From: Armatimonadota bacterium
GTDB taxonomy: Bacteria; Armatimonadota; JAAZEB01
Assembly: GCA_012512505.1 (NCBI GenBank)
Contig: JAAZEB010000167.1
Coordinates: 1-47,787, forward strand
Direction: 5' to 3'
DNA: 47,787 nucleotides
Position 1 is the first letter of the stretch. Each line of letters opens with the position of its first letter. The position numbers and the translations under genes were made by a program. This document shows, piece after piece, positions 3,450 through 43,017 of this stretch. Under the pieces are notes generated by a model. It ran no database searches, was not told the origin of the DNA, and worked only from the letters and a program-made list of their open reading frames with translations.

Positions 3450-3670
3450 GCGTTCTGCCTCCTGATCTCCCCGCGCGCGGGGGTGCCGATCCGAAACTCC
3501 TCGGTTCATATCCCCTGCGGGCCCAGCGCCGAAACGCTTTCCGGCAGGGGGGGCCAGGATCGGCGGCCGCCGCGAGCCCTCCACAAACAGCAACAACTGC
3601 TTGCAGGAGACAGCCGTGCCACGTCGAATGCAAGGACAACGCAGTGGCGGCGGGCCTGCTGCCCCTGCTC

Positions 3671-8351: not shown

Positions 8352-10631
8352 ATGAGACGTGCCGGTTCGCTGTTGCTGGTGTGCCAGTTGGCTCTGCTGT
8401 TGTCGGGCATTGCCCCCGCGCGGGCGGCCCTGACGCTGGAGCAGGAACTCCAGGCCGGCCGCGGCTTCGTGAACGCTTTCATTGAGCAGTACGGCCTCAG
8501 CGAGAACCAGCAGTACCGCGAGTTGGCCGAAGGCGTGCTCACGCGCCTGGTGCAGGCAAGCGGCGAGCGCCCCGAGTTGCCGTGGCGCATCGTGGTGCTC
8601 AAACACCACCCGGACAACCCGGCCGCCCGCAACGCCTCGGCGTGGCCCGGTGGCCAGATCGTCACCGATGAGGCGTTCTTCGAGCTGCTGGAAAAGGGCG
8701 CTGGCGGTGACGCTGAGCGCCTGCAGGCGATGACTGCCGGCGTGCTCGCCCACGAGATGGCCCACGTCATCCGCCACGACACCGATGCCCTGGTGCCGGT
8801 TTTCTTCAAAGACCCGGGCGTGCCCGCCCCCCAGCTTCTCTTCTCCCTCAAGTCGGTCGGCGACGGCCAGAAGGTCGGCGCCGCCGAGACGCGCCAGGCG
8901 GAGAATGAGTGCGACCGGCACGGCGCCTTCTACCTCCTGCGCGCCGGCTACCGCGTGGACGACATGATCAGCGTCTTCCGCTGCCTCGCCGATGAAGAGG
9001 TGGACGAGGTGCTCTTCGCCAGCGAGTTGGACCACGCCCGCGCCGCGGAGCGCGTCGGCAACCTCCTCGAAGTGCAGGAACAGGTGGTGGAGGACGAGCG
9101 CCTCTATGACGAGGCGGTGAACATCCTGCGCCTGGGGCTAGATGAGGCGATGCTGCGCATTGCCGAGCGCAACTTGGAGTTGGTCTCCGCTCGCTTTCCC
9201 AAGGTGCTGCCGGTGCGGCACGCGCGCGCCGTGCTTGCCCACCGGCGCTACCTGCTGAAGGTGCCGCCGCAAACGCTGCGGCTTAAGCCCTCCTTCTCCT
9301 TCTACCGCTTCCGCGCCTCGCGCGGCTTCCCGGAGGATTTCCTGCTCCAGGCGATCCGCGAGTACGAGGCGATCCTGAAGGACTACGAGAACACCGGCCA
9401 CCAGGGCCTCGGGCCGACGGTGGCCGCCTACGCGCTGGCGCTGGCACACAACGACCAGGCGGCCAAAGCGCTTCCCTGGGCACAGAAGGCGGTGCAGCTC
9501 TCTCCCGACGACTGGAGCGCCCACAACGTGCTCGGCATCGTGCAGTTGAAGCTCGACCAGCCTGCCGAGGCTGTGAAAAGTCTGACGCGGGCGGTGGGCC
9601 TGGCCGTGCCAGCCGAGCCGAAGGAGCTAGTGGAGCGCGCCTTCCTCAACGCCTCGATGGAAGAGCGCGCCGTGTGGCGCTACGTGGACGCGCAGACGCC
9701 GGTGGCGTTTGGGCCGGCGCTCTTCAACCTCGGCGTGGCGCTGCAGGGCACCGACCAGGAGGCCTCCGCCCAGGCTTTCCGTGCCTACCTGGCGACCGAC
9801 TCGATCAGCGACTGGGCAGACGAAGCCCGCGGTTACCTCCGGGGCAAGGCCCCTGCCGACCCGGGTGCCGCGCCGGTCGCCGGCATCACCGTGGGGATGA
9901 CGGACGCCGACCTGCGCAAGAAGGCGGGCGACGCGGCGATCGGCACGCCCCCCAGCCCCACCGCTCAGGTGTGGCGTTACAAGGAGAAAGGCTTCAGCGT
10001 CTTCCTCGATGAAACCGGCCGCGTCCGCGCAATGCTCCTCTACGCTCCCTTCGCCGGCCAGTTCGGCCCCGGCGTGACCCTGGGGGCCGCGCCAGCGCAG
10101 ATTGAGAAGGCGTGGGGCAAGCCGTTGGCCGCCCACACCGCCGGCGACCGGGTGGCCTGGGCCTATCCGGCGCACGGCCTCACCTTCGTGTTGACCAAGG
10201 ACAAGCTGACGAAGGTGGTGTGGGCCCCGGCGCCCCCGCTCGGGAGCGCCACCCTCGATGCCTCGATCAAGGTGCGCCCCGGCGATTCTGCCAGCCAGGT
10301 GGCGCAGGCGCTCGGCGGCCCGCCCGATTCCGGCCTGGGCGACGAGACCCAGGGCGGCGTGTGGGTGTACGACCGCCTCGGCCTGCGCCTCCGGTTCGAC
10401 CAGGAGGGCAAGGTCGCCCTGGTGACGATTAGCCGGCCAAGCTCCGCCCGGGTGGCAAACGTGAAGCTGGGCGACCCGCCCGCCCGCATCCGCCAGGCCG
10501 TCGGCTCCGGCATTGTCACCACCGACCTGGACAACTCCGAGACCTACACCTTCCCCGACCGTGGGGTTGCCTTCGTGGTGCGCAACGCCGAAGTCGCGCT
10601 GATCACCCTCTTCCCCAAAGAGGGCGGATAG
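8352..10631 (+). CDS. Secreted M48-like zinc metallopeptidase (HEMAH) with TPR repeats and C-terminal BamE/BLIP-like repeated modules
   Basis: Signal peptide MRRAGSLLLVCQLALLLSGIAPARA; HEMAHVIRHD HExxH motif; TPR-like helices mid-protein; 3-4 repeats of ~60 aa (G..F.V...G.V.A..L..P.) at the C-terminus. Confidence 0.7.
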   Translation: MRRAGSLLLVCQLALLLSGIAPARAALTLEQELQAGRGFVNAFIEQYGLSENQQYRELAEGVLTRLVQASGERPELPWRIVVLKHHPDNPAARNASAWPGGQIVTDEAFFELLEKGAGGDAERLQAMTAGVLAHEMAHVIRHDTDALVPVFFKDPGVPAPQLLFSLKSVGDGQKVGAAETRQAENECDRHGAFYLLRAGYRVDDMISVFRCLADEEVDEVLFASELDHARAAERVGNLLEVQEQVVEDERLYDEAVNILRLGLDEAMLRIAERNLELVSARFPKVLPVRHARAVLAHRRYLLKVPPQTLRLKPSFSFYRFRASRGFPEDFLLQAIREYEAILKDYENTGHQGLGPTVAAYALALAHNDQAAKALPWAQKAVQLSPDDWSAHNVLGIVQLKLDQPAEAVKSLTRAVGLAVPAEPKELVERAFLNASMEERAVWRYVDAQTPVAFGPALFNLGVALQGTDQEASAQAFRAYLATDSISDWADEARGYLRGKAPADPGAAPVAGITVGMTDADLRKKAGDAAIGTPPSPTAQVWRYKEKGFSVFLDETGRVRAMLLYAPFAGQFGPGVTLGAAPAQIEKAWGKPLAAHTAGDRVAWAYPAHGLTFVLTKDKLTKVVWAPAPPLGSATLDASIKVRPGDSASQVAQALGGPPDSGLGDETQGGVWVYDRLGLRLRFDQEGKVALVTISRPSSARVANVKLGDPPARIRQAVGSGIVTTDLDNSETYTFPDRGVAFVVRNAEVALITLFPKEGG

Positions 10632-16271: not shown

Positions 16272-17246
16272 CTACGCCGTCTTCCAGTTCAGGCGGAACA
16301 GGGTGCTCACCGACGAGTGGTGGTGGATGCAGCGGATCGCCTCGGCCAGCAGCGGCGCCACGGAGAGCGTGTGCAGCTTGGGCGTGCGGCGCTCCGGCGG
16401 GATCGGGATCGTGTCGGTCACCACCAGACTGAGGATCGGCGATTCTTCCAGGCGGGCGGGCGCGTTGCCGGAGAGCACCGGATGGGTGGCACAGGCGTAG
16501 ACGCCGCGGGCGCCACGCTCGATCAACGCGGTGGCCCCCATGATCAGCGAGCCGGCGGTGTCCACCATGTCGTCCACCATCACGCAGGTTCTCCCGGCCA
16601 CGTCGCCGATCACCTCCACCACTTCCACCTGGTTTGGCTCGGGCCGGCGCTTGACGATGATGGCGAAGTCGGCATCGAGGCGGTCGGCGTAGGCCCGCGC
16701 CATCGCCACGCCCCCAACGTCGGGCGAGACGACCACCAGCCCGTGGCCGTGGAGACCGCGCGAGATCAGGTGGTCAGCAATGATCGGGCCGGCGGGGAGG
16801 TGGTCCACCGGGAAGTCGAAGAAGCCCTGGATCTGCAGGGCGTGCAGATCCATGCAGAGGAGGCGGTGGGCGCCAGCGGTGGTGATCAGGCTGGAGATCA
16901 GCTTGGCGCTGATCGGCTCGCGCGGCTTGATCTTCTTGTCTTGCCGCGAGTAGCCGAAGTAGGGCATCACCGCGGTGATGCGCGCGGCCGAGGCGCGCCG
17001 GAAGGCATCGATGGAGAGGAGCAGCTCCATCAGGTGCTCGTTCACCGGGGCGCAGGTGGGCTGCACGATGAAGACATCGGCGCCGCGCACGCTCTCATCA
17101 ATGTCGATGCGGATCTCGCCGTCGGAGAAACGCGTTACCTGGCCGCGCACCGGCTCGATCTCCAGGCAGGCGCAGATGGCGCGTGCCAGTGCCGGGTTTG
17201 CGTTGCCGCTGAACACCTTCAGCTCCCCACCCCGCTGCATGCTCAT
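16272..17246 (-). CDS. prs: Ribose-phosphate pyrophosphokinase
   Basis: PRPP-binding motif VMVDDMVDTAGS, KIFSG-like N-terminus, RQDKK flexible loop; start ATG overlaps glmU stop (ATGA); alternative start 17240. Confidence 0.9.
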   Translation of the reverse strand: MSMQRGGELKVFSGNANPALARAICACLEIEPVRGQVTRFSDGEIRIDIDESVRGADVFIVQPTCAPVNEHLMELLLSIDAFRRASAARITAVMPYFGYSRQDKKIKPREPISAKLISSLITTAGAHRLLCMDLHALQIQGFFDFPVDHLPAGPIIADHLISRGLHGHGLVVVSPDVGGVAMARAYADRLDADFAIIVKRRPEPNQVEVVEVIGDVAGRTCVMVDDMVDTAGSLIMGATALIERGARGVYACATHPVLSGNAPARLEESPILSLVVTDTIPIPPERRTPKLHTLSVAPLLAEAIRCIHHHSSVSTLFRLNWKTA

Positions 17247-18460
17247 CCCTTCCCGCGAGACTCCCGCCGGCGGCGGGCCCAATCCGGTTTGTTCTCCTGC
17301 CGCGAGCGGGCAATCCCCAGCGCGTCCGCGGGCACCTCCTGGGGGATCGCCGAGTGGGCCGCCACGTAGGCGCCCGGCCCGATGGTAACCGGGGCGATCA
17401 GCACCGAGTTGCTTCCCACGAAGGCATGGGCGCCGATCGTGGTGCGGTGCTTCTCAAAGCCGTCAAAGTTGCAGGTGATCACCCCCGCGCCGATGTTCGC
17501 GTGGTCGCCCACCTCGGCATCGCCGACGTAGGCCAGGTGGGCAATGGAGACGTGGGCGCCCACCTGGGCGTTCTTCAGCTCCACGAAATCGCCCAGTTTG
17601 GTGCCCTCGCCCACGTCGCAGCCGGGGCGCAGTTGCGCGTACGGCCCCACCGCCACCCGGTGCCCCAGGCGGCTCTCCCGGATCACCGCCGCCTCGATGG
17701 TAACCTCGTCGCCGGTGACGCAGTGGATCAGGTGCGCGTGGGGACCAATGGTGCAGCGTTGGCCGATCTCGGTGCGGCCCTCCAGCAGCGTCCAGGGGTA
17801 GATCACCGTATCCATCCCGACGCGGACCCCGGCGTCGATGAAAGTGCTCTCCGGGTCGAGGATGGTGACGCCCTCGTCCATCAGGCGTTCGAGGGTGGCC
17901 CGGCGCAGCAGGCGCTCGGCGCGCGCCAGGTCGGCGCGGGTATCGACATCGATTAGCGGCTGGCCGGCCAGGCTGTAGACGCGCGCCGCGGGGAGGAGCG
18001 CCTCCGGGGTTGCCTCAGGGCTGAGGGCGAGGAGGGCCTCGCGGGCCACGGCGTAAGCGCCCACGGGAGCGCCGCCGATAGAGAGCGTGCTGGCGCCGCT
18101 GCCGGCGCCCTGGTGGAAGGTGAGCAGCGCCTGCAGGTGTGCCGCGGTGAGTTGCGGGTGATCGCACGGGAGCAGCAGCACCGTGGGGGCTGGTGGAAGC
18201 TGGGCGAGGGCGCGCTGGATCCCGGCAGCCAGGCTCTCGCCGCCAGGCACGTAGGTGGCGCGCTCCGCGGTGAGGGCGGCCAACGCCTCGGCCTCTGCCG
18301 GACCGAGCACCGCCACCGCCCTGACACCACTGCCTGTGGCGGCGTCGAGGGCATACTCCAGTAGGGCGCGGCCGCCAGCCCGGTGGAGCGCCTTCGGCAG
18401 TGCCGTCTTCAGGCGCGTGGCGGGGCCGTCCGCCAGGATGATCGCGACTGCATCGGCCAT
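17243..18460 (-). CDS. glmU: Bifunctional GlmU-like UDP-GlcNAc pyrophosphorylase/acetyltransferase (405 aa)
   Basis: N-terminal nucleotidyltransferase AIILADGPATRLKTALPKALH; C-terminal left-handed beta-helix hexapeptide repeats; conserved glmU-prs-pth order. Confidence 0.75.
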   Translation of the reverse strand: MADAVAIILADGPATRLKTALPKALHRAGGRALLEYALDAATGSGVRAVAVLGPAEAEALAALTAERATYVPGGESLAAGIQRALAQLPPAPTVLLLPCDHPQLTAAHLQALLTFHQGAGSGASTLSIGGAPVGAYAVAREALLALSPEATPEALLPAARVYSLAGQPLIDVDTRADLARAERLLRRATLERLMDEGVTILDPESTFIDAGVRVGMDTVIYPWTLLEGRTEIGQRCTIGPHAHLIHCVTGDEVTIEAAVIRESRLGHRVAVGPYAQLRPGCDVGEGTKLGDFVELKNAQVGAHVSIAHLAYVGDAEVGDHANIGAGVITCNFDGFEKHRTTIGAHAFVGSNSVLIAPVTIGPGAYVAAHSAIPQEVPADALGIARSRQENKPDWARRRRESRGKG

Positions 18461-18632
18461 TGCAAGGCCTGCCTTTCCCGGCACGCCCGGCCGCCGCCTG
18501 GCACGCCGGCGCCCGGGGGCACACCGCCCCCTACCCGCCGGGTGCCCACACGCCGCGGCCCGGGCCCCGTGCGGCGGCAACAAGCCCGAGCCACCCACGC
18601 GGCGGCTCGGGCTTGAGAAGGTGAAATCGTTA

Positions 18633-18706
18633 CTGGCTCCGGGGCAAGGATTCGAACCTCGATAGGCAGACCCAAATTCTGCTGTCCTACCATTAGACGA
18701 CCCCGG
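18633..18706 (-). tRNA. tRNA-Gln: tRNA-Gln (anticodon UUG)
   Basis: Hand-folded cloverleaf: acceptor TCCGGGG/CCCCGGA, D-arm GTCT/GGAC, anticodon stem GCAGA/TCTGC with loop ATTTGGG (UUG), T-arm CGAGG-TTCGAAT-CCTTG, genomically encoded CCA. Confidence 0.85.
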
Positions 18707-19001
18707 ATCGGCTGCCACCTTCATTATAGCCATCGGGCGCCGCCCTGTCAATCGCGAGTGCGCGTCGTGCGCGCCGTTGAGGTTCAAGGACCAGGAATGC
18801 GTTCTGGCGCCGGCCGGCGAGACGCCGACGATCCGACCCGGCTCGTGTCACTGAACGCATGCGGAGCGCCGTGCGGACTCCCGGTTGCCATCCGCGCGGC
18901 GGGGTGGTAGAATGGCGCCAACCCTCAGAGCGCGTGGCGGATGGGGCCGATCCCGCGCCGCGCGCTGCGCTGAAGCGGGGTGCCGGGAAGGGAGACCAAG
19001 C

Positions 19002-27567: not shown

Positions 27568-27879
27568 ATGCAGATTAGCGAGATGACCTGCCCGTGGTGC
27601 AGCAGTGGCCGAGTGGTGATTCACGGGCCGGACGAGCCATGGTTTGTGAAGGAGGACACCGGGCAGATTGGCCGCCGCGGCCCGAAGGGGCGGCCAGCGC
27701 GCTTCCAGACGGCACCGGTGACGTGGTTCTCCTGTACCGAGTGCGCCATGACCGGCACGCTGTCTTACTTGCGCATGCTGCTAACGGGCGGCGTGCGCCG
27801 CTACCTGGATGAGGTGGCCTTGCAGCAGCGCGCCTCCGCCTTCCTCCAGGATGGAGAGGTGGCCCTGCGGGCCGAATGA
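27568..27879 (+). CDS. Zinc-ribbon hypothetical protein (103 aa)
   Basis: CPWC...CTEC two CxxC pairs; GGGGAGG SD. Confidence 0.5.
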   Translation: MQISEMTCPWCSSGRVVIHGPDEPWFVKEDTGQIGRRGPKGRPARFQTAPVTWFSCTECAMTGTLSYLRMLLTGGVRRYLDEVALQQRASAFLQDGEVALRAE

Positions 27880-27939
27880 GCGCCGCCGCAGTACAGTGGG
27901 CGGGGCCAGCAACGACCCCGCCCACCCGATTTAGTAGAG

Positions 27940-28800
27940 TTAGCTACCGGCCGGCCGCTCGATGGTGCAGATGGCTGCCGGGCGCTTGATGCGCAGCGCC
28001 AGGATTTCCATCACCCGGAAGATGTGGTTCAGCTTGCTCGTCTCCAGGAATGCCGTCACCAGGTCCTGGGCGACGGCCAGGTCCATGTTCTCCGCCCCCA
28101 CCGAGACGACGACGGCCACCGAGTCGCTCAGCACCGGGGTCTGGAACACTCCGGCGGTAGCCAGCCGCTGCACCTGCTGCAGCTCCAGCACGCCGGTGTT
28201 GCCGAAGAGGCGGTTCAGGTTGGCGTAGAGGCGCGGGTTCACCACCAGCGCGTACGGCCCGAACAGCTCGTTCTCCACCAGCTTCTGGGTGGCGATCACC
28301 ACGTCGTTGAACGCGGCGCCTGCCTCGGCCCAGTTGCTCATCGCCACCTGGGTGCGCCCCTCCACGGTGGTCAGGCCGGCATAGCGATAGCCGCTCACCT
28401 GGCAGCCGTTGAAGATCAGGTCGTCCTCGGTGCGGGCGCAGAAGGTAGCGGCGGCCGCCGCCGCGCTCACGTCCAGCGGAATGCCAAGCTGCGCCGCGGT
28501 TTCCAGGTCGCGCCAGTGCAGGCGGAAGTCCTTGTAGATCATCGGCAGGGGCACGTACTCGCGCCCGGTAGCGTGAACCAGGCCGCCCTCCTCCTCGCCG
28601 AGGAAGCTGACCGCCCCCTGCTCGACCCCGGCCAGCATGTCCGAGGGAATCGCCTGCACGCCGGGCCCGAACGGACCCAGCAGCGGGATGATCCGCCGGC
28701 CCACCAGATTGCGCTCGGCGGCCGACTTGACCGTCCCATCGATCCGCTCCCATTGTTCGCTGCTGAGCGGGGCCTGATCACGCAGCAGGTAGTCTCCCAT
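27940..28800 (-). CDS. Family-1 encapsulin shell protein (HK97-fold, linocin M18-like)
   Basis: Aligns block-for-block with T. maritima encapsulin ([20 protein letters not shown] ~ [35 protein letters not shown] ~ [29 protein letters not shown] ~ GPYTLVINTDRWINF); GGAGGGAG SD. Confidence 0.9.
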   Translation of the reverse strand: [286 protein letters not shown]

Positions 28801-28837
28801 TGCTTCTCCCTCCAATGCCACCAAAGCACCAACGCGG

Positions 28838-29782
28838 CTACTCTTGCTTACGGCCGAAGAGGCTGCCCACGGTCCAGCCCAACCCGGGCCGCGGCGGGGC
28901 CTCCGGCGCCTCCGCGGCGGCGGCTTTCCTTTGCTCCTGCAGCGCCGCGAGCAGCTCCTGGAAGTGCGTCTCGTGATACTCCGAATGGTCCAGTATCCGC
29001 TGCAGGATCTCCCGCAACTCCGAGTCCTCGGTGGTGGCGAGTTGGCGTCGGTAAGCCTCCTCCACCTCGGCTTCCACCGCGATATTGGTCTGCAGGATCT
29101 GCTCCGGGTCGGAGTTGACGGCCAACTCGCCATGTTCGAGCCGGGGGGTTGCGCCGCTCTCCGCCACGTGCTCGGCCAGCCAGCCCATGTGCGTCATCTC
29201 GACAATCGCCTGGTCCAGCAGGTCCTTGCTCAACGCGCAGTGGGGCGTGAGGAACGACTGCTGTAGGTACTGCAGCAGGGTGGTGTACTCCAGGGCAATG
29301 TGCTCCTGCAGCGGCTCGGCCTCCGCCGCGCTCGTTTCGCCGGCGGCGGCTTCCTCCTCGGCGGCCGCTGGCGCGCTCTCCACCTTGGCCAGCAGGCCCT
29401 CGAAGTCGCGGCGGTGCGCGCGCTCGTCCACGGCGATGCGGCGCAGCAGCCCGGCGAGGCGCGGCTCGTCCATCGCCGCGGCGTGTGCCTCATAGTTGTC
29501 CGCGGCGTCCTTCTCCGAGGCGACGGCCAGGCGCATCAGCGCGACCGGGTCCGTCTCCGCGGTGCCAACCTCCGCGCGCTCGGTGGTGGGAGTGCCGCCC
29601 AGGCGCACCACCTCCTCGGAGAGCCATTTGAAGTGGCGCATCTCCTCGCGCGCGATCCCCTCGATCTCGGCGGCCACCTCTCCTTCTCCCAGGGCGTAAG
29701 CCGTTCTCAGGTAGAGGATGATCGCCCCGTGCTCGTCGCGGATGTCCTCGTTGAGCAAGCGGATTGCTTCCTGCCTGTCCAT
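28838..29782 (-). CDS. Encapsulin cargo: fused tandem ferritin-like (two diiron four-helix-bundle domains) with C-terminal targeting peptide LGWTVGSLFGRK
   Basis: Two homologous halves each with E..H/ExxH ligand pattern (DEHGAI..EEMRHFKWL..EKDAADNYEAH..DERAHRRDFE; EYTTL..EMTHMGWL..EAEVEEAY..DHSEYHETHFQ); acidic Ala/Glu linker; C-terminal TVGSL motif like M. xanthus EncB/C/D; immediately upstream of shell gene. Confidence 0.8.
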   Translation of the reverse strand: MDRQEAIRLLNEDIRDEHGAIILYLRTAYALGEGEVAAEIEGIAREEMRHFKWLSEEVVRLGGTPTTERAEVGTAETDPVALMRLAVASEKDAADNYEAHAAAMDEPRLAGLLRRIAVDERAHRRDFEGLLAKVESAPAAAEEEAAAGETSAAEAEPLQEHIALEYTTLLQYLQQSFLTPHCALSKDLLDQAIVEMTHMGWLAEHVAESGATPRLEHGELAVNSDPEQILQTNIAVEAEVEEAYRRQLATTEDSELREILQRILDHSEYHETHFQELLAALQEQRKAAAAEAPEAPPRPGLGWTVGSLFGRKQE

Positions 29783-29870
29783 GAACCGCTCTCCTTAGTT
29801 GGTGAACGTCAGCCACCCCATTCTACCACAAAACGGTTGGTGAAGGAAAGCGCGTCCTCCGGGCGGACGT
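29783..29870 (-). promoter_or_regulatory. Putative promoter/operator of the encapsulin operon: extended -10 (TGgTAGAAT) flanked by two TTCACCAAC direct repeats
   Basis: Minus-strand reading cTTCACCAACcgttttgtggTAGAATggggtggctgacgTTCACCAACtaaggagagcggttcATG; repeats on + at 29797-29805 and 29834-29842. Confidence 0.45.
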
Positions 29871-34502: not shown

Positions 34503-35681
34503 TTGAGTAAACGTGACCCATCCCTTGACATCTTCCGAGGACTCTGTATTGCGGAGGTGTTGCTGCACCACGTCTCGGCGTTTGCCACGCGCAAGACAGA
34601 TCCGGCATCGCTGTCTCATTTCGGTTACCTGGTGTTCAACCGCACGCTGCACTTCGCGGTGCCGGCCTTTCTCTTCATCATGGGGGCGCTGCTCACCCGC
34701 ACGATGATCTCCAAGCGCCGTACCTGGCGTGACTTCTACACCCGGCGGGCGCAGCAGACGCTGGTGCCTTACCTCCTCTGGTCGCTGATCTACGCCGTCT
34801 TTCGCGTGCTTACCGCGCAGGATGCCCCGGACGTGCTGCTCGATCCGGGGCGCTGGCGCGTGTGGCTGCTTTGGGGCAAGGCCTATTACCACCTCTACTT
34901 CCTGGTGATCGCCCTGCAGCTTTACCTGGTCTTCCCGTTCCTGATGGGCGTGCTGCAGCGCATCAAGGTGGGCATCGGGCCGCTGCTGGTCGTTGCCGCG
35001 GGGCTGCAGTTGGGCGGTTACTGGGTGCATCAGCAGTGGATCCATTCCCGCTACCCCTCCACCTTGCTGCTGTGGCACGTGCTGCCGGTGATTGTCGGGG
35101 TGTGGGTGGGGTTGAACCTGGAGCGTTGGAGCGAGACGTGGCTGCGGCTGCGCTACCTCGCTATTCCGATGGCGCTTGTCGGCTGGGCGACCTACGTGCC
35201 GCAGGCCATCACCCGCGAGTTGGAAGACCCGGTACGCACCTACAACTGGGCTGCCTACCTGCCGCAAGTCGTCATCCGCGTCCTGGAACGCCCGGTCGAT
35301 ACCTTCCATTACCAGATTGCCTGTTGGATCTACACGACGGGGATCATGTTCTGCCTGCTGGGGTTCTCGCGCTGGGTTGCCACCTCCAACGGCTGGCTGG
35401 CGCGCGGGGCGCTGCTCCTGGGCATGCAGTCGATGCAGATCTACCTGGTCCACCCGCTGCTGCTGCACCTGTGGTCGATGGTCGAGCACTCTGGCTCCAC
35501 GCTGGTCTTCCACTTCACCACGATCCTGGTGGCGGTGACGGTGCTGCTGGTCGCGCTAGGGGTGGCGTGGGTGGCCGCCCGGCTGGGCGTCTCGCTGCTG
35601 ATCTTTGGCCGCGACGGCACCGGGCTGCCTGGTATCCCTCCGCGCCGCGCGGTGGCGAACCAGGGGGCGTCCTCCCGTTGA
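34503..35681 (+). CDS. Acyltransferase family 3 (membrane O-acyltransferase, OafA/YrhL-like)
   Basis: LDIFRGLCIAEVLLHH N-terminal signature, ~10 TM helices; TTG start with GGGAAGG SD (no in-frame ATG that preserves the domain). Confidence 0.7.
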   Translation: MSKRDPSLDIFRGLCIAEVLLHHVSAFATRKTDPASLSHFGYLVFNRTLHFAVPAFLFIMGALLTRTMISKRRTWRDFYTRRAQQTLVPYLLWSLIYAVFRVLTAQDAPDVLLDPGRWRVWLLWGKAYYHLYFLVIALQLYLVFPFLMGVLQRIKVGIGPLLVVAAGLQLGGYWVHQQWIHSRYPSTLLLWHVLPVIVGVWVGLNLERWSETWLRLRYLAIPMALVGWATYVPQAITRELEDPVRTYNWAAYLPQVVIRVLERPVDTFHYQIACWIYTTGIMFCLLGFSRWVATSNGWLARGALLLGMQSMQIYLVHPLLLHLWSMVEHSGSTLVFHFTTILVAVTVLLVALGVAWVAARLGVSLLIFGRDGTGLPGIPPRRAVANQGASSR

Positions 35682-35760
35682 GCGCGCGCGGAGGCGTGCC
35701 GGTACGCTCCTGGTCGGCTGCCAGGCCGTAGGGAGGGCGGGCAGGCAGAAGGAGACGGGT

Positions 35761-38472
35761 ATGCTGAAGCAGGCAACGTGGTGGATCGCCGCGGGTCTCC
35801 TTGCCGGCGCTGCCGTGGTCCCTCCCGCGTTGAGCGCCCCGGAGGGGCTGCCTCTCACGGTGCCGTTCTCCCCGGCGGCCTGGCTGCCAGACGGCGGTGA
35901 CGCGCGCTGGCTGCGCCCCGAACCGGGAGAGTTGGAGACCAACGGCTTCTACCTCCGCGCCCCCAAGCCCGGTCAGGCGCACGCGGCGTGGCTGGCCGCC
36001 GCTCACCGCCTGCGCGCCTTCGACCGCACCGCACCGCCGCCGACCACTGTGCGGGTGGCGTTCGGTGGCGTGCGCGCGTGGACCCGCGTGCAGCCGGAGG
36101 TGGGCCGGCTGCTGCACCTGCAGCCGGGCGAGGCGCTGGTGGTTCGCCTCGAAGCACGCTGGCTGTCTGGCAACCCGGAGATCTGCTTCGCCCTGGACTA
36201 CCTGGACCCGCAGACGTTCGCCCAAAAGGGCTGGTCCGGTGTGCTCACCACCGCGCGCCTCCCGCAAGATGGAGAGTGGCATCCGCTGGAAGTGGCGCTC
36301 ACCCTCCCGCCGGACAACCCGCGGATCGGCGGTTGGGCCAACCTGATCGTTGGGCAGGACGCCACGCGCGACGCGACGCCGGGGCAATGGGAGATGCGCG
36401 GTGCCACCCTGCACCTGGCTGGCTCGCCGGGGCGCCGGCAGGCGCTGCGTGTCCTCCAGGCTGCCGCCGACCGCGCGGCCCACGGCCTCGACCGCTCGAT
36501 CTACGACCGGCCAGACCTGGCCTGGGGCGCCCGCAACTTCGCCTGCTACTTCCTCTTCCTCTACGACACCGCCATCTACGACCGCCAGGCGCGCCGCTAC
36601 CGGGTGGAGGCGTTCCTCGACGAGATGGAGCGCGAGTTTGGCGGCGTCGACTCGGTGGTCCTCTGGCAGGCCTACCCCCGCATCGGCGTCGATCAGCGCA
36701 ACCAGTTCGACTTCTACCGCGACCTGCCCGGCGGACTGGCTGGCCTGAAGGAAGTCACCGCCCGCTTTCACCGCCGTGGCGTCCGCGTCTTCATCGACTA
36801 CAACCCGTGGGATACCGGCACGCGCCGGGAGGAGGTCACCGACGCGGAGGCCCTGGGGCGCCTGGTGCGCGCCATCGGCGCCGACGGCATCTTTCTGGAC
36901 ACGATGGTGGCCGCCCCGGATGCCCTGCGCCCGACGGTTGACCGATACCGGCGGGGCGTGCTGTTCGAGCCGGAGGGGAGCCCGGAGATCGCCCAGATCA
37001 GCGCCTGCAGTGCCTCCTGGGCCCAGTGGCTGCCCACCTACCCGGAGCCTGGCGTGCTCCGCTTGAAGTGGCTGGAGCCACGGCACATGCAGCACCAGAT
37101 CCGCCGCTGGGATCGTTCGCACGCCGAGGAGATCGTCCAGGCGTTCTTCAACGGAAGCGGGATGCTGATCTGGGAGAACGTCTTCGGCACCCACAACCCC
37201 TGGAACGTCGAGGACCGTGCCACCTGGCGACAGGCGGTGCCGATCCTGCGCGCTTTCTGGCGCGAGCTGGCTTCGGAGGCCTGGGAGCCGTTCTTGCCCA
37301 CCCTGAGCGAGGGTGTCTTCGCCAGCCGCTGGATCGGCCGGCACGCGACTCTCTACCTCCTGGTGAACCAGACCGGCAAGCCGATCACCACCCCGATCCT
37401 GCAGCTTCCCGCGCTGGCCCGGTCGCGGAAGAGCCCGGAGCGGGTCTTTGACCTATGGCGGGGCGTGGAGATCCCGGCTCCCCCCGATGGCTTGCTGAGC
37501 ATGCCGCTGGAGCAGTTGGGCGCCGTCGCCGTGGTGCATGATGCGGCCGGCTTGCGGCAGGTGCAGCCGCTGCTGAACCGCCGCCCGCTGCCGCCACCCT
37601 CCCAGGCCCGGATGCTGGCCCGGCCGCATGATCCACGCCCGGTGCCGCGCACTCCCCCCGCCGACCCGGACAACCCACCGCCCGGCATGGTGCTGGTGCC
37701 GCGCGCCACTATCCGCCTGCGCCTGAGCCACGAGCGCCGCGAGTGTGGCTGTTACCCCGACCCGGGCACTCCGGCCGCGCGACAGGACGAGTTCACCTTT
37801 GGCGCTGCCTGGAACAGCGAGCTGACGCACGACTACCTCGCGACCGTTGGTCCCTTCCTGATCGACGAGTGCCTGGTGACCAACGGCGAGTACGAGGCGT
37901 TCCTCAAGGCCACTGGCTACCGGCCGGCGGAGCGGCGCAACTTCTTGAAGCATTGGCCGGGCGGACGGTGCCCGGCGGCGCTGCGCGATCACCCCGTCGT
38001 CTACGTCGATCTGGAGGATGCCCAGGCCTACGCGCGCTGGGCCGGCAAGCGCCTACCCACCGAGGCGGAGTGGCAGTTGGCCGGGCAGGGCACCGACGGA
38101 CGCCCCTGGCCCTGGGGCACGGAGCCGGATCCGGCGCGCGCCAACGGCCAGGGAAAGGGCACGACCCCGGTGCGCGCCTTCCCGGCGGGGCGCAGCCCTT
38201 ACGGCTGCTACGACATGGCCGGCAACGTCTGGCAATGGACCGAGAGCGAGCGCGACGATGGGCACACCCGCTACGCCATCCTCCGCGGCGGAAGCTACTT
38301 CTCCGCCGAGGGAAGCGTGTGGTACGTGCGCGGTGGCGCCCAGCCGCTCACCCGGCACGCCAAGTTCCTGCTGCTCTACCTCGGCCTCGATCGCTGCGCC
38401 ACCATCGGCTTCCGCTGCGTCAAGGATGTTTCCGGGCAGGAAGATGCGACGGACGACCGAACATATGATTAG
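35761..38472 (+). CDS. Secreted multidomain protein: N-terminal beta-rich region, central TIM-barrel glycoside-hydrolase-like region, C-terminal FGE-sulfatase (SUMF1)-like domain lacking the catalytic Cys pair
   Basis: Signal peptide; FIDYNPWDTG / GADGIFLDT GH-like blocks; C-terminus PWGTEPD...YGCYDMAGNVWQWTE...RGGSYFS FGE fold but no CxxxxC; AAGGAG SD. Confidence 0.7.
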   Translation: MLKQATWWIAAGLLAGAAVVPPALSAPEGLPLTVPFSPAAWLPDGGDARWLRPEPGELETNGFYLRAPKPGQAHAAWLAAAHRLRAFDRTAPPPTTVRVAFGGVRAWTRVQPEVGRLLHLQPGEALVVRLEARWLSGNPEICFALDYLDPQTFAQKGWSGVLTTARLPQDGEWHPLEVALTLPPDNPRIGGWANLIVGQDATRDATPGQWEMRGATLHLAGSPGRRQALRVLQAAADRAAHGLDRSIYDRPDLAWGARNFACYFLFLYDTAIYDRQARRYRVEAFLDEMEREFGGVDSVVLWQAYPRIGVDQRNQFDFYRDLPGGLAGLKEVTARFHRRGVRVFIDYNPWDTGTRREEVTDAEALGRLVRAIGADGIFLDTMVAAPDALRPTVDRYRRGVLFEPEGSPEIAQISACSASWAQWLPTYPEPGVLRLKWLEPRHMQHQIRRWDRSHAEEIVQAFFNGSGMLIWENVFGTHNPWNVEDRATWRQAVPILRAFWRELASEAWEPFLPTLSEGVFASRWIGRHATLYLLVNQTGKPITTPILQLPALARSRKSPERVFDLWRGVEIPAPPDGLLSMPLEQLGAVAVVHDAAGLRQVQPLLNRRPLPPPSQARMLARPHDPRPVPRTPPADPDNPPPGMVLVPRATIRLRLSHERRECGCYPDPGTPAARQDEFTFGAAWNSELTHDYLATVGPFLIDECLVTNGEYEAFLKATGYRPAERRNFLKHWPGGRCPAALRDHPVVYVDLEDAQAYARWAGKRLPTEAEWQLAGQGTDGRPWPWGTEPDPARANGQGKGTTPVRAFPAGRSPYGCYDMAGNVWQWTESERDDGHTRYAILRGGSYFSAEGSVWYVRGGAQPLTRHAKFLLLYLGLDRCATIGFRCVKDVSGQEDATDDRTYD

Positions 38473-38589: not shown

Positions 38590-39465
38590 ATGGCTTTCCC
38601 GGGGGGAAGGCGCCGGAGGGGATGGCTCCGGGTAACGCGCTGGCTGGCCGGGCTCGCGCTGTTGGTCGCAGTGGCGCTGCTGGCCACGGCCGGCGGGCGG
38701 GCCGGGAATGCCCCGGCGGCGCCGCCACCACCACCGGCGCCGCCAACGCGCCTCAACCCGGTGGATGGCTCACTGATGGTCTGGGTGCCGCCCGGCACCT
38801 TCCAGATGGGAGCAGAGGACGGCGCGGAGAACGAGCGCCCGGTGCACACGGTGCGCCTGACGCGCGGGTTCTGGATGTACCGCACGGAGGTGACCAACGC
38901 GCAGTGGCTGCGCTTTCTGGCGGCCCACCCGAAGCACCAGCGCCCGAAATACGCGCATCAGGCGCGGCTGATGCGGCCAGAGCAGCCGGCGGTGGCGATC
39001 TCGTATGACGACGCCGTGGCCTACTGCCGCTGGGCGAAGGTCCGCCTGCCCACCGAGGCGGAGTGGGAGTGGGCAGCGCGGGGCGCCGATGGCCGCCGCT
39101 ACCCCTGGGGCAACTGGGAGCCTGACCCCCGGCTGGCGGTCTTCTTCCGCTCGATCAACCTGGCCTCCCCGGAGGCAGTGGGCACTCGCCCCGACGGCGC
39201 CAGCCCCTTCGGGGTGCTGGACATGGCCGGCAACGCCTGGGAATGGACCAGCGACTGGTATGCCCCCTATCCGTCGGCGGCGCAGACCGACCCCACCGGG
39301 CCGGCGACGGGCAAGAAGCACGTGATCCGCGGCGGGGGCTGGATCAACCCGATGGAGCGACTGCGGACGACGGTGCGCGGCTTCGGCCGGCCGGCGCGCC
39401 GCAGCGGGCACATCGGGTTCCGGCCCGTCTGCGATGCGCCGCCCCCCACGGAGGCGAGTAGGTGA
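38590..39465 (+). CDS. Formylglycine-generating-enzyme (FGE-sulfatase) family protein, membrane-anchored, probably non-catalytic
   Basis: LPTEAEWEWAARG, FGVLDMAGNAWEWTSDW, RGGGW FGE-fold blocks; human-FGE C336/C341-equivalent Cys pair absent; GAAGGAGGA SD. Confidence 0.8.
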   Translation: MAFPGGRRRRGWLRVTRWLAGLALLVAVALLATAGGRAGNAPAAPPPPPAPPTRLNPVDGSLMVWVPPGTFQMGAEDGAENERPVHTVRLTRGFWMYRTEVTNAQWLRFLAAHPKHQRPKYAHQARLMRPEQPAVAISYDDAVAYCRWAKVRLPTEAEWEWAARGADGRRYPWGNWEPDPRLAVFFRSINLASPEAVGTRPDGASPFGVLDMAGNAWEWTSDWYAPYPSAAQTDPTGPATGKKHVIRGGGWINPMERLRTTVRGFGRPARRSGHIGFRPVCDAPPPTEASR

Positions 39466-40154: not shown

Positions 40155-40293
40155 GGACCCACCCGCGAGCCAACGGAGCGCCTGGTCCGCTGCTACCGGC
40201 GCGGCACTGGCCGTAGTGAGCCAGGGGCGGGAACTGCTGGGCGGGGTGTCGAAACCCCTCTCAACGGCAGCTTGCCGTTGAGGGATGGGTATC

Positions 40294-43017
40294 ATGCGTT
40301 GTTGGCGATTGCTTGCGCTGTTGATCGCTGGTGCGGGCGCGGCGGGCGCTCAAACCACCAACCTGATCCGCAACCCCGGCTTTGAGGCGGGCACCACGGC
40401 GCCCGCGGAGTGGGTGCTGGGGATGGAGGGGCACGGCGCCGGCTCGGCGCGGTGGGTGACCGAGAACCCGCGTTCTGGCACCCGTGCCGTGCGCCTGGAG
40501 ATGCTGGAGGCCGGCAACTACTGGATGGCGCGGCAGACCTATCCGGCTGGCACCGCCCGGCCCGAGCATCCCTACCGCCTCAGCGGCTGGTACCGCGGCA
40601 CGGAGGGGGTGTGCCACCCCTGCGTCTACTTCCGCAACAAAGAGGGCACCTTCCTCGGCGCTTGGGAAACGACACTGGCGCCCGCCAAGGAGTGGCGCTT
40701 CTTCGACTTTGTGTTTGCCACCCCGCCCGGCACCGACCACTTTGAGCTGCAGCTCCGCGCCCAGGGCGTGAAAGGCGTCTGCTGGTTTGATGATGTGGCG
40801 CTGGAAGATGCCGAGGCGCTGGCACGCGAGGGGCAGGCGCTGGTGGCGTCGCTGCTGGCTGCCGCCAAAGCCCATCCTGACACGCTGTGGGCGTTGGTCT
40901 CCAACGGCGGCCGCGTGGAGTGGGAGTTCGTCGGCAGCCCCACGCTGGAGGTGGCCTGGGCGACTGCCGGCGTGCCGGGGGAAGGGACTACCGCTCGCTA
41001 TGGCGTGCGCCTGGAGACCGGCAGCCGGCCCGGCAAGGGCAGCCCGGTGGTTCGCGGGCCGCGGAATAGCGCCCTGCGCTGGCAGCGGTTGCGCCTGCCC
41101 GCCGGCCGGCAGCGGACGCGGCTGGTCGCCTACGTTGACGGGGCCGGCGCGCGCCCGGTGCTGCTGGTGGGGGTGAAGGCCACCCGTGACGTGACGGCGT
41201 CGCTGGCGCGCTTGCAGGCCGATCCCGTCGACGAGGGCAATGCTGCCATGGAGGTTCCTTGGCAGACGCGCCTGCTCCCCGAGACGGCAGAGCGCTTTGC
41301 CGCCATCCGCCAGGCCAACCGGGGCACGGTGCTGCGCACGGTGTTGGGGGCGGCCCCGGGGAAGGCGGTCACCCGCGTCTGCAGTGCCTGGCACAACCTC
41401 ACCGACGACGGCTGGCTGGAGTGGGCGCTGTCGCGGCCGGGGCGAGCGCCGGTGCCGGCCGGTGCCCGCAACGAATATCTCTCGCTGCAGGTGCTCTTCG
41501 TGCCCCCGGGCCGGCCGCGGCAGGTTACCGCCCAGCCCACCGCGCTGCGGGGCCCTCACGGGGCGACGATCCCGGCGTCGGCCTGTCAGGTGCGGATGCT
41601 GGAGTACGTGCCGTTCCAGGGGAAGTGGTGGCCAGACCCCTTGATGGAAGCCCAGCCGTTCACCCCGCCGGCGCACGGCCCGATCGTCTTCTGGATCACC
41701 CTCCACGTTCCGCCGGACGCCCGCCCGGGCCTCTACCGCGGGGCGCTGCGCCTGCGCGCGGATGATGGCCCCGTGGTCACCCAGCCGTTCGCGGTTCGGG
41801 TGTGGAATGTGACCCTCCCGTCCGAGACGCACTTGCAGTCCAGCTTCTGGCTGTTCCGAGCCCAGATCCGCCGCTACTTCGACTTGCCCGGTGACTTGCC
41901 GCTGGAGGACTACTTCCCCTATATCGACCTGGCGACCTCCCACCGCCTCTCACCTATTGATGTGGTGGAAGGCCCCGCCGAGCCGCTGGTGAAGGTCTAC
42001 CGCGAGGCAGACGGCTCCCTCAGCTACGACTTCAGCGAGTGGGATCGCTATCTCGACCGGCTGCGTCAGGGTGGCGCCAACACAATCCACCTCGGCTTCA
42101 CCCACTGGATGGCCAACTGGTTCACCGGCCAGGCCCCCACGATCATCGACCGGCAGACCGGCGCGGTGACGGCGCCCGGCCACGCGTTTGGCAGCAAGGA
42201 GCACCTCGACGCGCTCGCCCACTACCTGCGCGCCGCCGCCAACCACCTGAAGCAGCGCGGCGAGTTCGAGAAGTGCTACATCCAGCCCTGGGATGAGCCG
42301 CACGGCGACGGCCTTGCCAAGAGCCACCTCGTCCTGGAAGGCCTGCGCGACCGCGTTCCCGAGATCCCCCGCCTGATGGACGCCGTGGCCCCGGAGACGT
42401 TCGACGGCCGCATGAAGGACGTGGTGAACCTCTGGTGCCCGCTTTCCCCCGGGGTGGAAGGCGGCGTCTTCGATGGCGTGCGCCAGCGCGGCGACACCCT
42501 CTGGTGGTACGTCTGCCTGGCCCCCGGCCGCCCCTACGCCAACTTGTTTACCAACTGGAAAGTGGCCGAGATGCGCGCCCTCTTCTGGCAGACGTGGCAG
42601 GTGGGCGCCACCGGAATCCTCTACTGGGGGCTCAACTACTGGCTGCATTGGGACGCGCCGGTGCCGCCGCCGGAAAAGCGCTTCCCCAACGGCCCCTGGG
42701 TCGCCTCGACCACCTACCGCGAGACGATTGGCGACGGCTACTTCATCTATCCCGGCCCGGCGGTGGACCAGCCGCTCAGTTCCCTGCGCCTGGAGACGAT
42801 CCGCGATGGCATTGAGGACTACGAGCTGCTCTACCTGCTGCGTGGGCTCGTGGAGCAGCGCTCCGACGCCGACGCGGCCACCTTGCGGCTGGCACGGGAA
42901 GTGCTGAAGGTGCGCCCCGGGGTGGCGAAGAACCTCCGCGAGTTTGACCGCGACGGCGCGGCGATCGATGCCGAACGCCAGGTGATCGCCCGCTTGATCG
43001 AGCGGCTGCAGCGGTAG
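40294..43017 (+). CDS. Secreted CBM4/9-like + DUF4091 (GH123-like) putative glycoside hydrolase
   Basis: Signal peptide; NLIRNPGFEAG...W carbohydrate-binding module start; C-terminal WWYVC...GILYWGLNYW...ETIRDGIEDYELL blocks resembling DUF4091; alternative ATG 40285. Confidence 0.65.
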   Translation: MRCWRLLALLIAGAGAAGAQTTNLIRNPGFEAGTTAPAEWVLGMEGHGAGSARWVTENPRSGTRAVRLEMLEAGNYWMARQTYPAGTARPEHPYRLSGWYRGTEGVCHPCVYFRNKEGTFLGAWETTLAPAKEWRFFDFVFATPPGTDHFELQLRAQGVKGVCWFDDVALEDAEALAREGQALVASLLAAAKAHPDTLWALVSNGGRVEWEFVGSPTLEVAWATAGVPGEGTTARYGVRLETGSRPGKGSPVVRGPRNSALRWQRLRLPAGRQRTRLVAYVDGAGARPVLLVGVKATRDVTASLARLQADPVDEGNAAMEVPWQTRLLPETAERFAAIRQANRGTVLRTVLGAAPGKAVTRVCSAWHNLTDDGWLEWALSRPGRAPVPAGARNEYLSLQVLFVPPGRPRQVTAQPTALRGPHGATIPASACQVRMLEYVPFQGKWWPDPLMEAQPFTPPAHGPIVFWITLHVPPDARPGLYRGALRLRADDGPVVTQPFAVRVWNVTLPSETHLQSSFWLFRAQIRRYFDLPGDLPLEDYFPYIDLATSHRLSPIDVVEGPAEPLVKVYREADGSLSYDFSEWDRYLDRLRQGGANTIHLGFTHWMANWFTGQAPTIIDRQTGAVTAPGHAFGSKEHLDALAHYLRAAANHLKQRGEFEKCYIQPWDEPHGDGLAKSHLVLEGLRDRVPEIPRLMDAVAPETFDGRMKDVVNLWCPLSPGVEGGVFDGVRQRGDTLWWYVCLAPGRPYANLFTNWKVAEMRALFWQTWQVGATGILYWGLNYWLHWDAPVPPPEKRFPNGPWVASTTYRETIGDGYFIYPGPAVDQPLSSLRLETIRDGIEDYELLYLLRGLVEQRSDADAATLRLAREVLKVRPGVAKNLREFDRDGAAIDAERQVIARLIERLQR

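Follow-up and report, generated by a model that had tools for sequence, protein, structure and literature searches.

A probable two-gene Family 1 encapsulin operon with a fused double-ferritin core cargo of the DFLP family

Encapsulin cargos built from two ferritin-like bundles have been described before. In 2021 Andreas & Giessen listed “Bfr” cargos that have two bundles and end in a targeting peptide (PMC8346489), and AlphaFold models of these Bfr-type cargos were discussed in a 2024 review (PMC11202242). A 2025 preprint named the family DFLP, solved the structure of TmDFLP (PDB 9VIW) and reported ferroxidase activity, heme binding and dimers by experiment for the homologues TmDFLP and CaDFLP (10.1101/2025.09.13.676036). 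In that work, 56 of 157 DFLPs were assigned as encapsulin cargo, including operons with a gene order identical to the one described here, and the peptide was docked into the shell by AlphaFold; encapsulation was based on genomic context together with AlphaFold models. The earlier note on this DNA had proposed a distinct architecture on the ground that known ferritin cargos are single-domain proteins. That claim does not hold, as the fused type was listed in 2021 and characterized in 2025 (9VIW). The fused architecture itself is already known and is no discovery any more, and the present operon adds a further example.

Here, we established the gene structure, homology, site residues, fold and peptide-shell gene linkage for a locus in a 47.8-kb stretch of DNA (47,787 nucleotides in all, “the window”). 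Judging from the nearest named relatives, the host is probably an armatimonadotal bacterium; Armatimonadota are not named in PMC8346489 or in 10.1101/2025.09.13.676036. Both genes lie on the minus strand where the earlier note had placed them, cargo first and shell second, with a 38-nt gap:

28838..29782, minus strand: DFLP cargo gene, 314 aa, stop codon included (open reading frame and ribosome-binding site)
27940..28800, minus strand: Family 1 encapsulin shell gene, 286 aa, EncA-like (PF04454, NF041155 and EncA match)

The cargo gene has the ribosome-binding site AAGGAG 9 nt upstream of its ATG. The shell gene product begins MGDYLL, and GGAGGGAG precedes its start. A longer shell ORF of 397 aa, extending to 29133, was rejected as an over-extension that runs into the cargo gene. 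On near-identical metagenome contigs, genes called independently have the same lengths of 314 and 286 aa and the same 38-nt gap. The Pfam and NCBIfam shell models and the cargo gene directly upstream on the same strand uphold the assignment to a Family 1 encapsulin operon, and we consider it highly probable that this is a two-gene operon with a DFLP-family member as core cargo, working by the iron mechanism proposed below.

The shell protein matched Pfam Linocin_M18 (PF04454) at 5.4e-70 and scored 276 bits with the NCBIfam family-1 encapsulin equivalog NF041155, whose cut-off is 100. It had been described as aligning clearly with the Thermotoga maritima encapsulin; the two are homologous but distant (E about 1e-14), and Myxococcus xanthus EncA is a far closer relative (E 2.4e-86, 50% identity over 282 columns). 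The Quasibacillus thermotolerans shell was matched at E 5e-70. EncA and the Q. thermotolerans shell, the closest characterized ones, belong to iron-storage systems. A phage-capsid remnant was ruled out by the equivalog score and the neighboring genes: about 35 window ORFs belong to housekeeping, regulatory or hydrolase families only, in agreement with the earlier report of no phage genes nearby.

We then divided the cargo protein as follows, using the alignment with 87 homologues and 9VIW, the predicted helices and, for the linker, its sequence, pLDDT and the family alignment:

29375..29782, minus strand: N-terminal ferritin-like bundle, aa 1-136
29330..29374, minus strand: acidic Ala/Glu interdomain linker, aa 137-151
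28910..29329, minus strand: C-terminal ferritin-like bundle, aa 152-291

The two halves are 27% identical to each other (BLASTP E 8e-15), and each separately matched PF00210 (Ferritin), at 5.9e-12 and 1.3e-11. AlphaFold2 modeled the cargo with pLDDT 92 and pTM 0.88 as two four-helix bundles, with helices at 3-31, 35-60, 79-103 and 107-136 in the first and 152-178, 182-208, 226-250 and 254-291 in the second. When superposed on mini-bacterioferritin, 2QQY or BfrB, each bundle gave a target-normalized TM of 0.8-0.85. The covalent fusion of two homologous ferritin-like bundles is thus borne out by the internal repeat, by the profile search of both halves and by structure prediction. The linker is likewise present as proposed (APAAAEEEAAAGETSAAEAEP), with low AlphaFold2 confidence (mean pLDDT about 60 for residues 141-150), and it varies in length, with gaps, in the family alignment. 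A Foldseek search against the PDB returned single-domain ferritins only, without 9VIW among the matches, and so confirms the fold of each half and not the two-domain arrangement. The sequence search did find 9VIW: phmmer aligned query residues 3-281 to chain residues 13-294 at E 1.4e-34, making TmDFLP a full-length homologue at roughly 30-35% identity, estimated by eye on the HMMER alignment.

Like the described DFLPs, this cargo has two fused four-helix domains, an N-domain EEHEEH site, both heme methionines, the dimer-disulfide cysteine, a flexible interdomain linker, a disordered tail and a C-terminal xTVGSL peptide. The N-domain ligands E17, E47, H50, E90, E120 and H123 form the canonical bacterioferritin-type EEHEEH set. 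The C-domain site (E165, E195, H198, E237, S267 and H270) reads EEHESH, with Ser in place of the fourth Glu, whereas TmDFLP has ESHEEH. In the family alignment, EEHESH was limited to the query clade (P0001-P0007), within which E268, the neighbor of S267, is not conserved. The C-domain site is EEHEEH in 57% of DFLPs, with ESHEEH and KKQVEQ as the commonest site deviations (10.1101/2025.09.13.676036). The family therefore tolerates deviations here, and EEHESH does not exclude the cargo from it. In different DFLP clades, one of the two diiron sites has decayed, reciprocally. The earlier idea of a self-contained ferroxidase unit is reasonable in that each bundle has its own site, as in bacterioferritin, but of the two sites the N-terminal one alone is canonical. 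Of 88 sequences, all keep the heme-axial M48 and 87 keep M196; the corresponding TmDFLP residues, M48 and M198, were reported as 100% conserved (10.1101/2025.09.13.676036).

The cargo protein ends in ...GWTVGSLFGRKQE, with PGLGWTVGSLFGRKQE as its C terminus. Its tail comprises:

28841..28909, minus strand: Pro/Ala-rich disordered tail with the putative targeting peptide, aa 292-314 (pLDDT about 50-69; motif search)
28859-28876, minus strand: WTVGSL core of the putative targeting peptide (motif search)

The TVGSL-type peptide is present as the earlier note described it. The TVGSL core is the same as in the EncB/C/D and IMEF peptides, with LTVGSL in EncB, EncC and EncD, and an xTVGSLxGxxQx ending is present in all long homologues. 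The first hydrophobic residue is Trp, whereas the published type is [LF]-x-[VI]-G-x-[LI] and the structurally characterized peptides have Leu or Phe; the corresponding starts are FTVGSL in CaDFLP and FTIGGL in TmDFLP.

To relate the peptide to the shell gene, we surveyed 73 usable loci from species-representative genomes, of which 21 encode peptide-bearing and 52 peptide-less DFLPs. A same-strand shell gene within 5 kb downstream was found for 20 of the 21 peptide-bearing DFLPs and for 0 of the 52 peptide-less ones (Fisher p = 5e-17, not corrected for phylogeny). Nineteen of these 20 shell genes start 15-151 nt past the cargo stop. The cargo-then-shell order seen in the window recurs in 20 related genome loci, and the CaDFLP gene likewise stands immediately ahead of a Family 1 shell gene. 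The peptide is a nearly perfect predictor of a neighboring shell gene. This bears on whether the adjacency could be coincidental, with the double ferritin free in the cytosol and the shell holding other cargo or none. Free proteins without an encapsulin gene do account for 52 of the 73 loci; however, the co-occurrence of peptide and shell gene, the 38-nt same-strand gap and a motif search in which no other ORF of the 47.8-kb window ended in a TVGSL-type motif make coincidence scarcely credible. The survey also counted 551 species genomes with a DFLP relative, which suggests that the family is larger than the preprint's 157 members.

The sequences flanking the two genes hold two candidate elements:

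29820..29828, minus strand: extended -10 promoter-like element TGGTAGAAT, 38 nt upstream of the cargo ATG (locus comparison)
27896..27927, minus strand: GC-rich hairpin GGGTGGGCGGGG-N10-CCCCGCCCAC, beginning 13 nt past the shell stop (read from the sequence)

TTT[GA]TGGTAGAATGGG is the sole conserved block in the otherwise unalignable upstream spacers of the window and loci L003 and L083. The promoter-like element is conserved in these three lineages, and TGGTAGAAT is a putative promoter. A generic promoter scan called no sigma-70 site, TGGTAGAAT included. The hairpin lies between convergent genes and likely marks the end of the transcription unit; it was missed by the terminator scan because it has no T-tract. 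That scan gave one weak terminator-like hairpin, at 29853-29869, no more than shuffles give. In Rfam and tRNA scans the sole hit was a tRNA-Gln some 9 kb away, and no riboswitch turned up close to the operon.

The cargo is most likely a heme-binding ferroxidase, probably dimeric, tethered in an iron-storing EncA-like shell. We propose that the shell protein would self-assemble into an EncA-like icosahedral compartment and that the disordered cargo tail would dock WTVGSL in the shell's luminal pocket; the DFLP would thereby be packaged as the shell assembles. Fe2+ would enter via the shell pores and be oxidized by the canonical diiron center of the N-terminal bundle, and the Fe3+ product would mineralize in the lumen. 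The fused bundles would resemble a bacterioferritin dimer, and together with Met48 and Met196 they would form a heme site between the domains through which electrons could flow to release iron. The C-terminal bundle, one carboxylate ligand short (EEHESH), is probably catalytically altered or mainly structural. Ferroxidase activity, dimer formation and heme binding are attributed to the cargo by analogy with its homologues TmDFLP and CaDFLP, and we infer packaging, mineralization, shell size and the role of the heme in the host organism. Among the observations counted against this mechanism are the Trp start of the peptide, the C-domain site without one Glu, and the lack of an iron regulator, ferredoxin or transporter gene among the neighbor ORFs adjoining the operon.

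Two other encapsulin systems offer the nearest models for such a compartment. The M. xanthus EncA/EncB/EncC/EncD system (PDB 4PT2, 7S20, 7S5K and 7S8T) has a shell 50% identical to the present one, the same TVGSL core and iron mineralization inside the shell, which we presume for this operon as well. EncB and EncC differ in being two-helix EncFtn-type proteins with the diiron site between decamer subunits, whereas this cargo has complete four-helix units in one 314-aa chain. Their match to it was weak, spanning one helix pair at E about 1e-3, and EncFtn/EncB membership of the cargo was rejected on NCBIfam scores (EncB_fam 48 bits versus a cut-off of 90, ferrit_encaps 32 versus 125). IMEF, from the Q. 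thermotolerans T=4 encapsulin (PDB 6N63, shell 6NJ8), is also a four-helix ferritin-like cargo with a TVGSL-type peptide, dimeric in a large iron-storing shell related to ours. However, IMEF has one bundle and no detectable sequence similarity to this cargo, and its operons often include a ferredoxin bearing an N-terminal peptide, which this operon lacks.

With bacterioferritin and mini-bacterioferritin (such as P. aeruginosa BfrB, PDB 9QQ4; 2QQY) the cargo also shares the fold of each half, the EEHEEH ligands of its N domain and an axial heme Met between bundles. Those proteins have one domain per subunit, assemble into cages of 24 or 12 subunits and lack a targeting peptide. Twelve fused cargo subunits (24 bundles) could build a bacterioferritin-like cage that is itself packaged in the encapsulin, with iron stored in the inner cage. 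Such a shell within a shell was proposed for this cargo class in 2021 (PMC8346489) and modeled in the 2024 review (PMC11202242), and the bacterioferritin-like bundles and retained heme methionines would suit it. Against it, the characterized relatives form no cages: TmDFLP and CaDFLP were dimers or monomers by SEC-MALS and SAXS, and AlphaFold3 predicted dimers for DFLPs and cages for true ferritins (10.1101/2025.09.13.676036). In addition, Cys182 of the cargo aligns with the 9VIW cysteine that is the preprint's C184, the position of the disulfide at the TmDFLP dimer interface, and is consistent with a cargo dimer. We regard the inner cage as very improbable and retain the tethered, probably dimeric ferroxidase.

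Beyond the shell gene, the present clade differs from the described DFLP systems in carrying a linked third gene:

27568..27879, plus strand: Cys4 ORF (CPWC...CTEC), 103 aa, convergent to the shell gene (conserved adjacency)

The ORF is highly conserved. Its homologues, 66-85% identical and falling into 9 clusters in all, lie beside the shell gene and run toward it in L001, L002, L003, L083, L087 and L088, where the gene on the far side from the shell differs from locus to locus. Wherever a related contig reaches past the shell gene, the ORF is found next to that gene. C11, C56 and C59 are invariant, and C8 is found in 9 of 10 sequences. Searched against Pfam at E up to 10, it gave weak zinc-ribbon hints alone (E 0.05-0.2) and no family match, so we rejected it as a recognizable rubredoxin; an AlphaFold2 model from a 10-sequence alignment was unusable (pLDDT 50). 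The ORF is a possible accessory of the operon and possibly a new detail for DFLP-encapsulin loci.

The Cys4 ORF also enters an alternative reading of the main job, peroxide or oxygen detoxification, in which the cargo would be a rubrerythrin-type diiron (per)oxidase, a small Cys4 redox protein its electron donor and the shell a means of confining reactive intermediates. A canonical rubredoxin gene was found upstream, on the same strand and within 5 kb, at 11 of 20 encapsulin-linked and 26 of 52 free DFLP loci, and never downstream or on the opposite strand. At L007, two rubrerythrin-family proteins, a rubredoxin, a rubredoxin reductase, the DFLP and the shell are encoded in one same-strand row; one of these rubrerythrin-family proteins has a rubredoxin-like domain. 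Rubredoxin and rubrerythrin genes also lie near CaDFLP (10.1101/2025.09.13.676036), and the Cys4 ORF is kept beside the shell gene in the window clade. However, the window, L003 and L083 contain no canonical rubredoxin, the Cys4 ORF is not recognizable as one, and the closest characterized shells come from iron-storage systems. TmDFLP, moreover, consumed and oxidized Fe2+ as a ferroxidase (10.1101/2025.09.13.676036). Detoxification as the main job is therefore unlikely in our judgment, and the two roles are not mutually exclusive. In Chloroflexota, DFLP genes often stand behind rubredoxin, rubrerythrin and rubredoxin-reductase genes, an arrangement that would suit an oxidative-stress role as well and was also counted against the iron mechanism.

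A more tentative and rather doubtful proposal is that, in this Armatimonadota-like clade, the Cys4 protein is a so far undescribed third component of the DFLP-encapsulin system, serving iron release as a metal-binding redox partner or acting as a regulator, and functionally replacing the rubredoxins encoded beside Chloroflexota DFLP genes. The EEHESH C-domain would then be a specialized electron- or iron-transfer site and not a ferroxidase center.

Taken together, the operon adds to the recently described DFLP-encapsulin iron system a clean example with core cargo, from a poorly studied lineage, probably Armatimonadota. The reciprocal decay of the diiron sites and the recurrent Cys4 or rubredoxin neighbors could guide experiments on how iron or electrons pass into and out of these compartments.

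Gene calls placed the cargo and shell genes on the reverse strand, with a gap of 38 nt from cargo stop to shell start, and two metagenome contigs that are nearly identical to the window (L001 and L002) gave products of the same sizes, 314 and 286 aa. A 397-aa shell ORF reaching 29133 was rejected as an over-extension, which would overlap the cargo gene. G+C content is ~70% across the entire window. We compared the spacers ahead of the cargo gene in three diverged lineages, namely the window, L003 (an Armatimonadetes MAG with 57-58% cargo and 69% shell identity to the window), and L083 (a further contig with a cargo relative), and the sole alignable block was TTT[GA]TGGTAGAATGGG.

29820-29835, reverse strand: conserved TTT[GA]TGGTAGAATGGG block
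29828-29820, reverse strand: extended -10-like TGGTAGAAT within that block, from the same three spacers
29796-29791, reverse strand: AAGGAG, 9 nt ahead of the cargo ATG
28838-29782, reverse strand: cargo gene, 314 aa
27940-28800, reverse strand: shell gene, 286 aa, N-terminus MGDYLL, with GGAGGGAG directly ahead
27927-27896, reverse strand: GC-rich hairpin beginning 13 nt past the shell stop codon

Judged from the sequence, the -10-like block and the hairpin would be features of a cargo-shell transcription unit. Neither a Fur-like nor any other regulatory element was recognized for the operon, and an Rfam scan returned no family near it.

The shell protein matched Pfam Linocin_M18 (5.4e-70) and the NCBIfam family-1 encapsulin equivalog (276 bits; cut-off, 100). 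The earlier note had described a clear likeness to the T. maritima encapsulin; that match exists but is distant (~1e-14), and the nearest solved structure is instead M. xanthus EncA, which is identical at 141 of 282 aligned columns (E, 2.4e-86). The Q. thermotolerans T=4 shell and other encapsulins with large shells were also among the closest solved structures. The possibility that the shell is a phage capsid remnant amid phage genes found no support, as none of ~35 neighboring ORFs was phage-like and ordinary chromosomal families occurred throughout (xylose-isomerase-like TIM barrel, DUF5658, SPFH, HhH-GPD glycosylase, GAF-GGDEF, aldehyde dehydrogenase, and glycoside hydrolases).

Pfam Ferritin (PF00210) matched the cargo twice (3.8e-23 overall; 5.9e-12 and 1.3e-11 for the separate halves), and the halves are 27% identical to each other (E, 8e-15). 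An AlphaFold2 model built from a 45-sequence alignment (pLDDT, 92.2; pTM, 0.88) contained two four-helix bundles, an Ala/Glu linker at low confidence, and a tail disordered from residue 292. In Foldseek, each bundle superposed on mini-bacterioferritin 9QQ4, 2QQY, and BfrB with target-normalized TM scores of ~0.8 to 0.85, so both halves model as diiron four-helix bundles. The curated models for EncFtn/EncB-type cargos (EncB_fam and ferrit_encaps) scored 48 and 32 bits, under their cut-offs of 90 and 125, and these identities were rejected. The observation of an encapsulin operon with a fused double ferritin-like cargo is correct.

The best PDB sequence match to the cargo was 9VIW chain A (“Bacterioferritin,” 306 aa; E, 1.4e-34), with query residues 3-281 aligned end to end to chain residues 13-294. 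This chain is TmDFLP, the solved member of the double ferritin-like proteins (DFLPs), a family defined from 157 sequences, 56 of which were assigned as encapsulin cargos (10.1101/2025.09.13.676036). TmDFLP forms a symmetric dimer through a disulfide at Cys184, with ferroxidase activity, sub-stoichiometric heme, conserved Met48 and Met198, an EEHEEH diiron site in the N-domain, and a more variable C-domain site (10.1101/2025.09.13.676036). An older suggestion, a 12-subunit DFLP cage inside the encapsulin shell, is contradicted by SEC-MALS, SAXS, and AF3 data on DFLPs (10.1101/2025.09.13.676036). In the AlphaFold models of double-ferritin cargos described in a 2024 review, the first site is conserved and the second variable (PMC11202242). 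The earlier note's premise of exclusively single-domain ferritin-type cargos is therefore outdated, with two-bundle cargos in that review and earlier work and DFLPs in the later study (PMC11202242; 10.1101/2025.09.13.676036), and the novelty claimed for the fused tandem architecture is superseded by the described family.

Residue conservation was assessed in an alignment of the cargo with 87 protein-database homologues (88 sequences). The N-domain ligands of the cargo are E17, E47, H50, E90, E120, and H123, and those of the C-domain are E165, E195, H198, E237, S267, and H270 (EEHESH), the fourth Glu, equivalent to the bridging residue E127 in the standard numbering of E. coli Bfr, being replaced by Ser. 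The adjacent E268 is no conserved substitute for the lost Glu, because it is Val in several clade members. Among the 88 sequences, the EEHESH C-domain was limited to the nearest clade of the query (P0001-P0007; 50-99% identity). The N-domain site of that clade is intact. In another encapsulin-linked clade, P0076-P0087, this is reversed: the N-domain is degenerate (EDH[VI]KH; EDHVEH in P0076) and the C-domain canonical, so that each clade has one decayed diiron site, in opposite domains. Met48 was present in 88/88 sequences and Met196 in 87/88; Cys182 aligns with the TmDFLP disulfide cysteine, in a column with Cys in 19/88.

In long cargo homologues (308-398 aa), a Pro/Ala-rich stretch leads into a terminal xTVGSLxGxxQx, and the homologues of ~279 aa (Chloroflexota, where named) end directly after the last helix. 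WTVGSL is the sole ORF-terminal TVGSL-type motif within the window. Its first hydrophobic position is Trp, unlike the Leu or Phe of solved complexes, and Trp recurs there in several lineages. For CaDFLP, a characterized member with FTVGSL, the gene also lies immediately ahead of a Family 1 shell gene whose product has EncA as its nearest solved relative (10.1101/2025.09.13.676036).

Among species-representative genomes, a scan detected a relative in 551; from the best 80 loci of these, we scored the 73 with enough flanking DNA. Peptide and a same-strand shell gene ≤5 kb downstream occurred together in 20 of the 73, at 15-151 nt from cargo stop to shell start in 19 and 410 nt in one; 52 had neither, and no shell gene adjoined a peptide-less DFLP. 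The single locus with a peptide (PTVGSL) and no shell gene ≤5 kb downstream was L070 (cargo ending at 3609), whose DFLP may, like TmDFLP, be a secondary cargo. This co-occurrence (Fisher P = 5e-17, which overstates independence since the loci are phylogenetically related) excludes mere adjacency of cargo and shell.

A short ORF, termed the Cys4 ORF, was also linked to the shell gene.

27568-27879, forward strand: Cys4 ORF, 103 aa, CPWC...CTEC, conserved loop GRRGPKGRPARF (strongly basic), convergent with the shell gene
L003 6416-6736, reverse strand: counterpart beside the shell gene
L083 5001-5312: counterpart beside the shell gene

A search of 5.8 billion proteins gave only nine homologue clusters, all ~103 aa, 66-85% identical, and with a mean column identity of 82%; this conservation exceeds that of cargo (57%) and shell (69%) in the same genomes. 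Wherever the contig reaches far enough (L001, L002, L003, L083, L087, and L088), the ORF adjoins the shell gene convergently, and the gene on its far side varies. It matched no known family and gave no usable fold prediction.

In the same survey (best 80 of 551; mostly MAGs named as Chloroflexota), the DFLP gene had a canonical rubredoxin gene ≤5 kb upstream on the same strand at 11 of 20 encapsulin-linked loci (L005, L007, L013, L016, L023, L037, L048, L053, L059, L066, and L082) and 26 of 52 free loci (e.g., L054 4777-4890 and L020 4212-4325), and never downstream or on the opposite strand. In L007, a same-strand row comprises two rubrerythrin-family genes, one of them encoding a rubredoxin-like domain, then rubredoxin, rubredoxin-NAD+ reductase, DFLP, and shell genes. 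This neighborhood, noted previously for CaDFLP alone (10.1101/2025.09.13.676036), suggests electron supply to DFLPs. No canonical rubredoxin gene was found in the window clade (window, L003, and L083), where, speculatively, a comparable role might fall to the Cys4 ORF.

Several other features were observed. L083 carries a VIT1-family gene (vacuolar iron transporter-like; 9365-10096, reverse strand) ~2 kb away from its DFLP-encapsulin pair; no counterpart was seen beside the operon in the window. A DUF892-domain ORF (YciE/YciF-type ferritin-like superfamily; 2961-3920, reverse strand), ~25 kb from the operon, overlaps an opposite-strand HEPN-domain ORF, and its call is uncertain. A tRNA-Gln (anticodon TTG; 18634-18707, reverse strand) falls near the 5' end, and inside, of an ORF with nucleotidyltransferase and hexapeptide domains (17243-18787; 514 aa), so the true start of that ORF must be downstream of the tRNA. 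Adjacent FGE-sulfatase (formylglycine-generating enzyme-like) domain genes (35605-38472 and 38590-39465, forward strand), followed by a GH123 glycoside hydrolase (40285-43017), are unrelated to the operon.

As the most likely mechanism, we propose that the shell would assemble and capture the DFLP, by homology probably a heme-binding dimer, via its C-terminal tail; Fe2+ would then be oxidized at the N-terminal diiron site, and ferric mineral would build up in the EncA-like lumen. A rival explanation is a rubrerythrin-like oxidative-stress role. We consider the original assignment, an iron-storage nanocompartment, essentially correct. The value of this operon lies in its clade-specific C-domain site, its Trp-type peptide, a host phylum that is probably new for the family, and the Cys4 ORF linked to it.
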